From the IMG/VR virus record IMGVR_UViG_2671180458_000007: a stretch of 4,655 bases of DNA; one strand, 5' to 3'. The DNA is from a virus. Lineage: Duplodnaviria > Heunggongvirae > Uroviricota > Caudoviricetes. Positions 568 to 4,328 of this stretch are shown in pieces. Below the pieces are notes generated by a model. It made no database searches. It worked only from the letters and a program-made list of their open reading frames with translations, and was not told the origin of the DNA. Made by a program: the position numbers and the translations under genes. The number at the start of each line of letters is the position of its first letter. Within the stretch, counting starts at the first letter, position 1.

Positions 568-2457
568 TCAGAGTGAATCTGTCCCGCCTGATTTGACCAT
601 ACCGCGATAATCCAGAGCTGCCACACCTGCATCAATACGGACTTTCCAGGCCACGCCGTCAACGATAAAACCTTCCTGCTGTTCAAGGTAAGGCTCGTCA
701 TTGCCATCAAGATAAGCCACCTCGATTGTGTCCGTTCCCTGTGCGGAAAGCATGTACCATTGTTTTTCGCTGATATCATCAAGGCGGGGATCGACGATGA
801 TATCAAGTAGCTTGTGGTACGGGTTAAAGATCCCGCTGTTTTTATCAGCCCCGAAAGGTGCGGTTGAGTTAATCATCTGCAACGCGCGATCTTCCAGTGC
901 TGCCGGAACTAAAAGGAATTTAGGCGCAATATTCAGCACTTCGCCATTTTTGTCCTTCTGTGTGCGCATCAGGTGACGTGCTGCACTAAGTCCCGGTGTT
1001 GTCAGTCCTGCTTCAATCAGGTTGCTGTGTTTTTTGTCAAACAGCGTTATTCCGTCAGAAAGTTTTACGTTGCCTGTAAGCACCAGATTAACCAGATTTC
1101 CCACCGTTCTTGATGCTGCACGGCCCATAGCCATTGGCACCGTTGATAACTGATCAAGGTCATCATTGATTATCGCCTGGCGGGTAATGCTGAAAATATT
1201 CCCGTAAGTAGCCAGCGCGATGGGTTCACCGCGATCGCTGGTGGTGATGTATTTATATTCTGCCCCTTCCGGAACTTTGTTTAACGTTGAGAAGCCATTC
1301 ATACCAACGCGGCGGGCTTCCCGGAAGTTTGAAAGGGAACCTTTTTTCGTCCACTGGCGGAATGTTTCGCCGCTGTGCTCCCAGCCTGCAAGCACTGATT
1401 TTTCAGCGCCACCAGCAAGGATATCGGTAAAATCGCTGCTGCTGTGGGTGAATGCCGCGTTTACTATCTGCGAGCGTGTGCTGTAGCTGCCCGTGCTTAT
1501 ACCACGATGGGTTAATGATGCCTGTGCCATATCGAAAAGGCTCATCATGGCGTAAGGATTACCGCGTTCGGCCCGTTCGTGACCAAGACGCGCATTAAGC
1601 CCCTGACGCATGGCATCGCCAGTTATATTGCCGTTATCCGTGTACGCGTAGTAAAGATTTGCGGGGGTGGTTTTGTTTGTTGGCGTTGATTCTTTACCCA
1701 TAGCGAGTAAAAGGCGTTCGCGTGCATTCTCAACGCTACATTCTGAATCCGCAAGACAACTTATAGCCAGGTCGTTATATCTTCCGTTGAAGGTGCCAAA
1801 CAATTCACGGATGCCGTTAAGTCGTTCCTGTTCGCCACTGCCAGTTTTCTGGCTGATCATGCTTTTAATTTTTTCCGGCATATTTGAAAAATCTCCGATT
1901 CGTTTTGATTCAATTCGGGCCATTGCTGTAATCGCGGGTATAACCTCATCTGCGAAACCGTTAGCCTTACACTCATTGCCATCCATCCAGGTTTCCGCCT
2001 CCATCATGGAGGTGATTTCCTGTTTGCTCCTGCCCGTTCTTCCGGCATAGGTTTCTGCCATCGTGTCGCCCAGCTTGTCCATCAGATCAGCAAAGCGGCG
2101 AACGTCGCCCGACACTCCGGCAGTAACACCACGGGGGGCATGTATCATCATCATCGCGTTTTCAGGCATAACGATATGATCTCCACACATGGCAATAAAC
2201 GAGGCCATAGAAGCCGCCATGCCTTCAATGTGTACGATTTTTTTTGCCGGATGATTTTTCAGAGCGTTATAGATAGCCAGCCCTTCAAAGATGTCGCCAC
2301 CAGGTGAATGGATGCGAAGATGGATTTCAGACGCATTACCACACGCGTTGATCTCGTCAGTAAGTGCCGATGCTTTTACACCGTACCCGCCGATCTCGTC
2401 ATAAATGCGCACATAGACAACATCTGCCATAGCCTTAATGGAAAACCATGTTTTCAT
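568..2457 (-). CDS. Prohead protease / major capsid fusion protein: N-terminal ClpP-family (S14) serine protease domain, linker or scaffold-like region, C-terminal putative major capsid domain (629 aa)
   Basis: Long intact ORF. The N-terminal ~190 aa carry ClpP signatures visible in the translation: HSPGGDIFEGLAIYNAL (ClpP INSPGG...AG.AIYD motif), GMAASMASFIA (active-site Ser motif G.AASMG), MMIHAPRG (active-site His motif MIHQP). The remaining ~430 aa are too long for a protease alone. Assigning them to a capsid domain rests on known ClpP-type prohead protease-capsid fusions in prophages, not on a motif I can verify by eye. ATG at 2455-2457 is preceded by AGGGG about 7 nt upstream and overlaps the upstream ORF stop (ATGA). 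Confidence 0.85.
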   Translation of the reverse strand: MKTWFSIKAMADVVYVRIYDEIGGYGVKASALTDEINACGNASEIHLRIHSPGGDIFEGLAIYNALKNHPAKKIVHIEGMAASMASFIAMCGDHIVMPENAMMMIHAPRGVTAGVSGDVRRFADLMDKLGDTMAETYAGRTGRSKQEITSMMEAETWMDGNECKANGFADEVIPAITAMARIESKRIGDFSNMPEKIKSMISQKTGSGEQERLNGIRELFGTFNGRYNDLAISCLADSECSVENARERLLLAMGKESTPTNKTTPANLYYAYTDNGNITGDAMRQGLNARLGHERAERGNPYAMMSLFDMAQASLTHRGISTGSYSTRSQIVNAAFTHSSSDFTDILAGGAEKSVLAGWEHSGETFRQWTKKGSLSNFREARRVGMNGFSTLNKVPEGAEYKYITTSDRGEPIALATYGNIFSITRQAIINDDLDQLSTVPMAMGRAASRTVGNLVNLVLTGNVKLSDGITLFDKKHSNLIEAGLTTPGLSAARHLMRTQKDKNGEVLNIAPKFLLVPAALEDRALQMINSTAPFGADKNSGIFNPYHKLLDIIVDPRLDDISEKQWYMLSAQGTDTIEVAYLDGNDEPYLEQQEGFIVDGVAWKVRIDAGVAALDYRGMVKSGGTDSL

Positions 2458-2903: not shown

Positions 2904-2917
2904 CGGGAACGTTCCGG
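2904..2917. promoter_or_regulatory. Palindrome cGGGAACGTTCCgG, candidate dimeric regulator binding site
   Basis: Perfect 10-bp palindrome GGAACGTTCC at 2906-2915 with partly symmetric flanks. It lies in the promoter region between the upstream terminator (3076-3098) and the capsid operon and is absent from the otherwise similar region A. Confidence 0.35.
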
Positions 2918-3000
2918 TGATGAACAAAAAACAACCTGATTCGACACTAAAAATTTTTATTTCTCAACATATCAATAACTTATAGTGGTGGTGATGGTGC

Positions 3001-3098
3001 CATAAAAATCAAAAAATGCGCCTTTTTCCGCGCCCTCCCGCCCCGTGTACAGGCCCACCCCACCAGGAGGACCCGCAAAAAAGCCGGATTGCTCCGGC
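3001..3098. repeat. Copy B of the ~100 bp conserved intergenic cassette (first copy at 464-561)
   Basis: See copy A. It sits immediately 3' of the stop of the 3106-3378 gene and ends in a terminator hairpin. Confidence 0.7.
3076..3098 (-). terminator. Rho-independent terminator after the small regulator-like gene
   Basis: On the minus strand: GCCGGA-GCAA-TCCGGC hairpin followed by TTTTTTG, 8 nt after the TAA stop at 3106-3108. Confidence 0.7.
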
Positions 3099-3105
3099 TG
3101 TGTGA

Positions 3106-3378
3106 TTAGCTGTCCTGGTAATTGCGCCATATTTCATCACCAGCACCATCTATACCCATTTCGGCACAAGTGCGATTAACTGCATTTCTCAGGTCTCCGA
3201 AATTATCAGGCGGCTCCGGTGGCCTCTGTGCCTTCCTGGAACATTCCAGCCGTCGCATCGTGATGTGATGCCGTTCCTTGTCTGTCTCCACCAGCATCAT
3301 GACTTCACCCCATCGCGCCGCCGCCCTCCGGTAAAATCCTTTCGCTTCGAGTTCTTCCGCTATGCGGTCATGTACCAT
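3106..3378 (-). CDS. Small basic protein (~90 aa), possible PerC-like transcriptional regulator
   Basis: The ORF track gives 3106..3498 (130 aa), but that start overlaps the ssb 3' end by ~110 nt. The internal ATG at 3376-3378 (MVHDRIAEELEAKGFYRRAAARWGEVMMLVETDKERHHITMRRLECSRKAQRPPEPPD...) lies 10 nt after the ssb stop and has GAGGGGG 5-6 nt upstream. The PerC-like call rests on recalled resemblance of the N-terminal region and is unverified. Confidence 0.55.
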   Translation of the reverse strand: MVHDRIAEELEAKGFYRRAAARWGEVMMLVETDKERHHITMRRLECSRKAQRPPEPPDNFGDLRNAVNRTCAEMGIDGAGDEIWRNYQDS

Positions 3379-4085: not shown

Positions 4086-4314
4086 CCTTCACCTGTTCAC
4101 CTTTTGATATTTTATCTTTTAATTCATAATGTTAAGGGGTGAACAGTTTCACAAAAACTATTCACCAACTATTCACCACTGTTCACCCTTGAAGCTCAAT
4201 AAACAATCAAAAAGGTGAACAGTGAATAGTTTGGTGAACAGTTCATAAATAACTGTTCACCCTATAATATACTGATATAAAAGATATTTATGACAGAGTG
4301 AACAGTGGTGAACA
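4086..4314. repeat. Iteron array: ~11 copies of TGTTCACC/GGTGAACA (P4 type I iteron sequence) with AT-rich flanks; candidate crr- or ori-like cis replication site
   Basis: Exact or one-mismatch octamers at 4086, 4094, 4159, 4170, 4180, 4254 (TGTTCACC orientation) and 4138, 4214, 4222, 4233, 4297, 4307 (GGTGAACA orientation). Several are spaced 10-11 bp apart. Two ~50 bp imperfect direct repeats (4138-4188 and 4214-4262) each run from GGTGAACAGT to CTGTTCACCC. AT-rich stretches at 4101-4136 and 4262-4296. The array ends 15 bp from the stop of the flanking gene. Confidence 0.8.
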
Positions 4315-4328
4315 GTTATTCCATAAGT

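Follow-up and report, generated by a model that had tools for sequence, protein, structure and literature searches.

The segment at positions 2914–3099, on the minus strand, of the 4,655-nt stretch of DNA analysed here (the window, with positions counted from its first letter) very probably consists of two adjacent and separable modules, an intrinsic terminator and a complete lambda-type cos site originating from a lambdoid phage. This reading is based on the homology of the second module to the cos sites of lambda and other phages, the position of its counterparts in phage genomes, the synteny of the surrounding genes with a phage-inducible chromosomal island (PICI), the separability of the two modules, and the co-variation of cosB with the small terminase subunit TerS. 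The conserved G-rich repeat of the window would accordingly be a DNA-packaging signal and not a transcription control element, which corrects the earlier reading of this sequence.

Host island and the two copies of the element

The long ORFs of the window are all encoded by the minus strand. An approximately 10-kb island located at tRNA-Pro in E. coli JNEC-KY174 shares 99% identity with the window. The genes of the island are, in order, int, an HTH gene, an Icd-like gene, DUF4222, primase, ori, an 81-aa gene, ssb, a PerC-family gene, copy B of the repeated element, a 64-aa gene, a protease-capsid fusion gene, copy A of the element and a 93-aa gene. The order in EcCICFT073 (int, primase, ori, ssb, PerC, a small gene, capsid and a final 93-aa gene) matches that of the island, in which the layout of EcCICFT073-type PICIs is also recognizable, i.e. 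int, an alpA-like HTH gene, primase, ori, a late/packaging zone and a specific att site. As judged from gene order, the window is part of an approximately 10-kb island syntenic with the PICI EcCICFT073. A phmmer search of all island ORFs with RppA, lambda Nu1 and VT1-Sakai TerS revealed no Rpp, Nu1 or TerS homologue (best E = 0.37), and both cosB regions of the island are of the phage type and not of the Rpp-specific non-phage type. The island is therefore best described as an rpp-less relative and not as an Rpp-type PICI.

The capsid gene of the window (568–2457, minus strand) encodes a 629-aa fusion of a ClpP-like prohead protease with an HK97-fold major capsid protein, and it occupies the place of the separate homologues of lambda E and D found in EcCICFT073. 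Full-length homologues of the fusion, with 41–62% identity, are present in Kluyvera, Yersinia, Rahnella, Pasteurellaceae, Shewanella and Pseudomonas. Dense direct and inverted GGTGAACAG iterons cover positions 4090–4320 between the primase gene and the 81-aa gene, which is the expected position of a PICI replication origin; the array also gave rise to spurious microRNA-like Rfam hits.

The window has exactly two occurrences of the motif GGGTCCT-N(15-30)-CGGGGCGG (501–537 and 3038–3074), each on the minus strand, and 200 dinucleotide-preserving shuffles gave none. The features of the two copies and of the neighbouring genes, all on the minus strand, are as follows.

3106–3378, minus: PerC-family regulator gene (Pfam PF06069, E = 5e-42; RefSeq annotation of the 99% identical island)
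3083–3098, minus: hairpin GCCGGA-GCAA-TCCGGC, putative intrinsic-terminator stem-loop of the ssb/PerC unit (terminator scan, fold, conservation)
3077–3082, minus: T6 tract, which would form the terminator U-tail and is at the same time the T-run ahead of cosQ in phage cos
3068–3074, minus: cosQ of copy B, GGGTCCT, invariant in the alignment with lambda, phages and EcCICFT073
about 3028–3047, minus: cosN region of copy B, ACACG-GGGCGGGAGGG-CGCGG, aligned to TTACG-GGGCGGCGACCT-CGCGG of lambda
about 3033–3043, minus: putative cohesive-end segment of copy B, with predicted nick positions taken from the lambda alignment
2914–3027, minus: cosB of copy B, 'type B', ...TGATTTTTATGGCACCATCACCACCAC...GTTCATCACCGG (93.5% identity to 1720a-02 over the 168-nt cos)
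568–2648, minus: 64-aa gene and ClpP-protease/major-capsid fusion gene, between both cos copies
546–561, minus: hairpin of copy A, GGCGGC-ACCA-GCCGCC, downstream of the capsid gene (fold, alignment of the copies)
540–545, minus: T6 after the copy A hairpin
531–537, minus: cosQ of copy A, GGGTCCT (motif search, alignment)
492–510, minus: cosN region of copy A, CACG-GGGCGGGCGG-CGCGG, with a core one base shorter than in copy B
345–491, minus: cosB of copy A, 'type A', ...GTGATTTTATCGTCATCATCATCATG...AAGATGATGG...TTTACAAAAAA, of the VT1-Sakai/Stx2-phage type

A repeat search paired 452–562 with 2989–3099 at 75% identity. The first-pass annotation had regarded copy B as the same element as copy A, and a second copy is indeed present at about 345–563; over the 70 aligned bases of cosQ, cosN and the start of cosB, i.e. 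the G-rich part, the two are 90% identical, whereas their hairpins are unrelated (GCCGGAGCAATCCGGC versus GGCGGCACCAGCCGCC). The repeated unit is the G-rich part together with the sequence after it, not the terminator, and it extends some 90 nt beyond the segment first annotated, to about 2914. The copies are thus alike because both are cos sites and not through a common terminator. The cosN cores of copies B and A (3033–3043 and 497–506) differ by one base in length, so that the cohesive ends of the two copies would not match. Among near-identical copies elsewhere, the G-rich core between CG and CGCGG measures 10, 11 or 12 nt (11 in copy B), and in the 140 copies described below it varies in both length and sequence, in phages and satellites alike, which is odd for a fixed 12-nt stagger. 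None of the phage records of this cos subtype in the collections has its physical ends in the predicted cosN, these records being cut elsewhere.

Lambda and lambdoid phage cos sites

The ends of lambda were fetched, joined at the junction and aligned with both window copies. The lambda junction reads TTTACGGGTCCT-N21-CG/GGGCGGCGACCT/CGCGGG and that of copy B TTTGCGGGTCCT-N22-CG/GGGCGGGAGGG/CGCGGA, the spacing from cosQ to CGGGGCGG being 21 and 22 nt, respectively, and both ACGGGGCGG and CGCGG are conserved between lambda and the window. In an alignment of ten sequences, comprising lambda, two CFT073 prophages, both EcCICFT073 cos sites, VT1-Sakai, 1720a-02, mEp460 and both window copies, no variation is seen in the cosQ heptamer, in the left half of cosN or in the CGCGG flank. 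The proposal that the G-tracts form a control point of late expression is not supported, since the G-rich part aligns base for base with the cosQ–cosN junction of lambda.

A BLAST search with 2985–3105 retrieved the element in 31 phage records with E-values down to 2e-36, including 1720a-02 and CP-1639 at 97% identity as well as VT1-Sakai, Stx2 phages, mEp460 and others. In phages the element is positioned between the last lysis gene (Rz) and a gene for a 158-aa protein, identified as the small terminase subunit (DUF1441/phrog_141), which is followed by genes for a lambda-A-like large terminase and a lambda-B-like portal; this location of cos between the lysis and small-terminase genes is found in VT1-Sakai, 1720a-02, mEp460 and the two CFT073 prophages. 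In lambda this position is occupied by cos. Given the alignment with lambda cos and the position in phages, a late promoter or activator site in the G-rich region was dropped as an explanation.

Copy B is 93.5% identical to the sequence of 1720a-02 over 168 nt, from TTTTTGCGGGTCC to GTTCATCAC(C/T)GG, and the homology ends about 25 nt ahead of the ribosome-binding site of the phage terS. Upstream of cos, 1720a-02 carries an AT-rich palindrome and not a GC hairpin. Copy A shares 87% identity with VT1-Sakai over 198 nt and 94% with Stx2 phages over about 103 nt.

When viral contigs were scanned for the exact pattern, 120 loci were obtained; together with other loci, 140 cos copies had enough flanking sequence for analysis. 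Phage context was recognized for 62 of these (36 with cosB type A and 26 with type B), all with the palindrome TGATAAyCATTATCA followed by T4-5 and with an intact cosQ. Another 64 copies are in satellite context, with a GC hairpin and T6, and a TerS gene follows in 0 of the 56 satellite copies that have enough downstream sequence. The AT-rich palindrome with its short T-run just upstream of cosQ is also seen in lambda (48452–48466), as it is in 62/62 phage copies, and the GC hairpin with T6 of the satellites occupies exactly its place.

It is clear that the type of cosB and the type of TerS go together in phages. Type A was accompanied by the N-terminal DNA-binding domain of VT1-Sakai-type TerS in all 38 copies concerned and type B by that of 1720a-02-type TerS in all 28, i.e. 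the pairing holds in 66/66 phage copies. The two reference TerS proteins are 77% identical, their first 60 residues being divergent and the rest nearly identical. The window copies carry these phage type A and type B cosB sequences; the cosB of copy B is presumed to be the TerS-binding region of 1720a-02/CP-1639-type phages. Runs of CAT/CAC, which resemble His codons, were rejected as a coding signal; they lie in cosB and differ with its type and are therefore candidate TerS sites.

The G-tracts may also be viewed as a G-quadruplex or another structured nucleic acid acting on transcription or replication independently of packaging, since the minus-strand sequence GGGG-T-GGG-N9-GGGG-C-GGG-A-GGG fits a relaxed quadruplex pattern. 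Such a role is extremely improbable, however, as the homologous lambda cos lacks a pattern of this kind, the conservation is even across non-G positions (cosQ, CGCGG and cosB) and tracks the TerS type, and folding supported no structure.

A contig scan with the capsid fusion protein as a query yielded 77 loci, among which the strict cos motif was found only in Kluyvera loci, directly after the capsid gene, and in a Serratia MAG, elsewhere in its locus. In the Kluyvera ascorbata locus (6914–7320), the homologous capsid fusion gene is succeeded by a hairpin, by a cos whose cosQ and cosN are the same, and by an ORF with a TerS- or Rpp-like HTH, an arrangement that is intermediate between the window island and Rpp-type PICIs.

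Probable terminator module and capsid-operon leader

From 3099 to 3001 the minus strand reads AGCCGGAGCAATCCGGCT-TTTTT-GCGGGTCCTCCTGGTGGGGTGGGCCTGTACACGGGGCGGGAGGGCGCGGAAAAAGGCGCATTTTTTGATTTTTATG. The hairpin GCCGGA-GCAA-TCCGGC with its T6 tract, followed by G-tracts, is present as the first-pass annotation described it (3083–3098 and 3077–3082). Hairpin and T6 lie 7 nt past the stop codon of the PerC-family gene on the coding strand, and a terminator scan detected the hairpin and T-run at 3099–3082 on the minus strand, with 7 pairs, 5 of them G-C, and a loop of 4. The computed folds amount to -13.7 kcal/mol (z = -2.48) for the hairpin of copy B and -18.9 kcal/mol (z = -3.58) for that of copy A. 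The copy B element thus has the GC-rich stem-loop, followed by a U-tract on the transcribed strand, of an intrinsic terminator.

The sequence downstream of PerC in EcCICFT073 is exactly ACACAGCCGGAGCAATCCGGCTTTTTTGCG and continues into unrelated sequence with no cos. Since an identical hairpin is found there with no cos behind it, the terminator and cos are separate modules. The hairpin in EcCICFT073 ends in TTTTTTGCG, which is shared by the cos of phage 1720a-02, and the junction between island-specific and phage-derived sequence therefore falls inside TTTTTTGCG. All 64 satellite cos copies have a GC hairpin and T-run at the same place, represented by two unrelated stems, GCCGGAG.AATCCGGC and GGCGGCA.CAGCCGCC, and several variants, i.e. 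the structure was kept while the sequence changed. From its form, its position and this conservation with sequence turnover, hairpin and T6 most likely end the ssb/PerC transcript, although the stem through which termination would act is short (6–7 bp). The earlier claim that the ssb/regulator transcript is terminated before the capsid operon hence appears plausible, given the form of the hairpin, its location 7 nt after the PerC stop codon and its retention in EcCICFT073.

The promoter-like sites in the leader of the capsid operon are all weak (8 of 12), and a palindrome is also present; the capsid genes may therefore reasonably be supposed to have a regulated promoter of their own. The first-pass annotation had the capsid operon dependent on its own promoter or on an antitermination step; the promoter is a reasonable proposal in view of these sites, while nothing points to antitermination. 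The argument for a promoter of the capsid genes is independent of the G-tracts. The palindrome AATCAGA-N10-TCTGATT (2725–2748), located ahead of the 64-aa/capsid operon, overlaps with weak hexamers of the -10 type and is a candidate operator of the capsid-operon promoter; a longer palindrome is present at the equivalent place in EcCICFT073.

The leader also includes a second GC hairpin, GCGCCTCCGG...CGGGGGCGC, at 2846–2876 (2836–2885 with its tails), which is the best terminator-like fold of the window (-27.4 kcal/mol, z = -4.0). Its T7 tail is on the plus strand, opposite to all genes, and a T4 is on the gene strand; an analogous A7-hairpin-T4 is found at the same relative place in EcCICFT073. 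This hairpin may terminate transcription in both directions, or a small antisense transcript of the capsid-operon leader may end at it. The plus strand yielded no promoter with a score of at least 8 of 12.

A rival reading is that the whole repeated element is a 'terminator cassette', in which hairpin and G-tracts together control late, helper-dependent capsid expression by way of a promoter or antitermination. In favour of it, the hairpin and its T6 do exist just past the PerC-family gene, both copies are at the ends of transcription units, and the leader with its weak promoter-like sites and palindrome is as expected of a regulated promoter. Against it, the hairpins of the two copies are unrelated while the G-rich part is common to phages at the position of cos, and EcCICFT073 has the same hairpin without the G-rich part. 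Furthermore, no Rfam family matches the element, the fold of the 128-nt element reaches only z = -1.9 (minus strand) and -0.8 (plus strand) against shuffles, and no antiterminator gene or nut, put or qut site was noticed in passing. A cassette of this type is accordingly considered very unlikely, and the reading as a terminator and a cos site is preferred.

Several other RNA and coding candidates were rejected. A whole-window Rfam scan (E ≤ 10) returned nothing credible on the element, with no hit overlapping 2985–3100 and the chance-level snoRNA/sRNA rows falling outside, and the z-scores given above are not significant for a structured RNA on either strand. An sRNA on the plus strand that would extend from a -10-like TAAAAT into the hairpin was dismissed: the promoter-like site is listed for copy A only, the tail past the hairpin is TGTGTG, and cos accounts for the conservation. 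Small ORFs, e.g. that of 52 aa at 2972–3130, cross the terminator, and their frame and stops are not conserved between the copies; rejected together with them were the 'hypothetical proteins' that the annotations of 1720a-02 and mEp460 place over the element.

Proposed packaging by helper phages and comparison with known systems

By homology and by analogy with the experiments on EcCICFT073, copy B of the island would be cut and used in packaging. Induction of a helper would lead to excision of the island and its replication as concatemers, helper TerS would bind cosB, TerL would nick cosN, and the DNA would be pumped into the prohead toward the capsid gene until a later cosQ–cosN terminated the packaged molecule. 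Copy B would be the packaging start on concatemers for a 1720a-02-type helper terminase, and its cosQ and cosN could also finish a molecule; copy A, as a second cos with a different cosB, would have the same role for VT1-Sakai/Stx2-type helpers. An island with neither rpp nor TerS presumably depends on direct mimicry of the helper cosB. Tentatively, the rpp-less satellite may thus be viewed as a dual-specificity parasite that either of two helper packaging groups could mobilise, with copy B mimicking the cosB for 1720a-02-type TerS and copy A that for VT1-Sakai/Stx2-type TerS, although this extension is put forward with less conviction than the identification of the cos site itself. In the searchable literature no explanation was found as to why some PICIs have two cos sites.

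The satellite loci with two cos sites have type B upstream and type A downstream in 13/13 cases, 2535–2539 bp apart. The upstream cosQ is AGGTACT in 8/13 of these relatives and in the O157 island, while the downstream one always keeps GGGTCCT. Because the upstream copy so often carries AGGTACT in relatives, copy B may be dispensable or specialised. The main rival to the dual-helper reading goes further and takes copy B as a true cos homologue that is a relic or serves initiation only, gained when the island recombined with a 1720a-02-like phage through microhomology at TTTTTTGCG, with copy A doing the work. Besides the altered cosQ of the relatives, the absence of a cos at the copy B position in EcCICFT073 is in line with this, as is the finding that of the two EcCICFT073 sites only cos1 is essential (PMC6092414, PMC6739421) and that deletion of cos2 even raises transfer (PMC6092414). 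Against it, the cosQ and cosN of copy B are intact, its cosB is full-length, its identity to the phage cos is 93.5%, and the order of the two types is constant in all 13 loci; moreover, the altered cosQ is one recurrent allele accompanied by intact cosN and cosB, not random decay. We regard this rival as unlikely. From the dual-specificity standpoint, AGGTACT in the upstream cosQ of relatives would make an initiation-only copy that avoids premature termination.

The AGGTACT allele was found in 21/64 satellite copies, 20 of them of type B, and in 0/62 phage copies, behind several different upstream genes, which points to spread or selection and not to random decay. Relatives of the island in O157, O111 and O121 adjoin a terminase-large gene that is truncated, at a distance of about 8.6 kb downstream from a prophage's own type-A cos, and represent the helper-embedded type of PICI reported in PMC10111431; the examined O157 island has no PerC gene. 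The 'doubled motif' of helper-embedded PICIs (PMC10111431) was considered as a possible counterpart of the repeat and rejected, as it is an attP arm motif, TGTATTGC, unrelated to the cos repeat.

Models of late regulation of the island should keep the terminator and cos as distinct parts. The island would offer a clear-cut case in nature of a satellite copying the full cos, including the cosB of two helper types, with no Rpp adaptor, and the pairing of cosB with TerS (66/66) provides a testable rule for predicting which Stx-type or other lambdoid prophages can mobilise such islands in pathogenic E. coli.

Compared with intrinsic terminators, the first module has the usual GC stem, 4-nt loop and T6 tail on the coding strand just past a stop codon, and it differs in that the T-tract of copy B also serves as the left flank of the cos site. 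The second module shares with lambda cos the cosQ heptamer, a closely similar spacing (22 versus 21 nt) and the flanks ACG/GGGCGG.../CGCGG, and in phages with a cos of this kind terS follows at about 190 nt. It differs from lambda in the interior of cosN, with 10–11 nt instead of 12 between the CG flanks, and in a cosB unrelated in sequence, and no IHF or R sites were identified in the window. The closest relatives are the phages 1720a-02 and CP-1639 for copy B (type B; 93.5% over 168 nt) and VT1-Sakai and the Stx2 phages for copy A (type A; 87–94%); both phage groups differ from the island in that the GC hairpin is replaced by the palindrome TGATAAyCATTATCA and that terS follows cosB directly.

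The best studied counterpart is EcCICFT073 (Fillol-Salom 2018 ISME J, PMC6092414, and 2019 Mol Cell, PMC6739421; Murialdo & Feiss 2022, PMC9026076). Its cos1 and cos2 were demonstrated to be functional by deletion and plasmid transfer (PMC6092414; PMC6739421; review PMC9026076), and its packaging needs helper TerS, the non-phage cosB of cos1 being read by a complex of RppA with TerS (PMC6092414, PMC6739421, PMC9026076). The motif search used here found both EcCICFT073 sites, one about 100 nt upstream of rpp and the other, inverted, before the last gene. EcCICFT073 and the window island have in common the island architecture, two cos sites with lambda-like cosQ and cosN, a GC hairpin and T-run just before cosQ (cos1 being GGCCGGAGAAATCCGGC-T7-ATGGGTCCT), and packaging by a helper terminase, which is proven for EcCICFT073 and probable by homology for the window island. 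They differ in that cos1 of EcCICFT073 has a non-phage cosB and lies directly upstream of rppA, and its cos2 is inverted, whereas the cos sites of the window island are co-oriented, flank the capsid gene and carry phage-type cosB of two types. The cos of the window island is of the VT1-Sakai/1720a-02 and not of the lambda/phi80 subtype, an Rpp or TerS homologue is absent, and a protease-capsid fusion replaces the homologues of lambda E and D. A PICI cos site is a known kind of element and a known route by which E. coli satellites are packaged into phage particles; specific to the present island are the VT1-Sakai/1720a-02 cos subtype, the co-oriented pair flanking the protease-capsid fusion, and the phage-type cosB of two specificities without Rpp.
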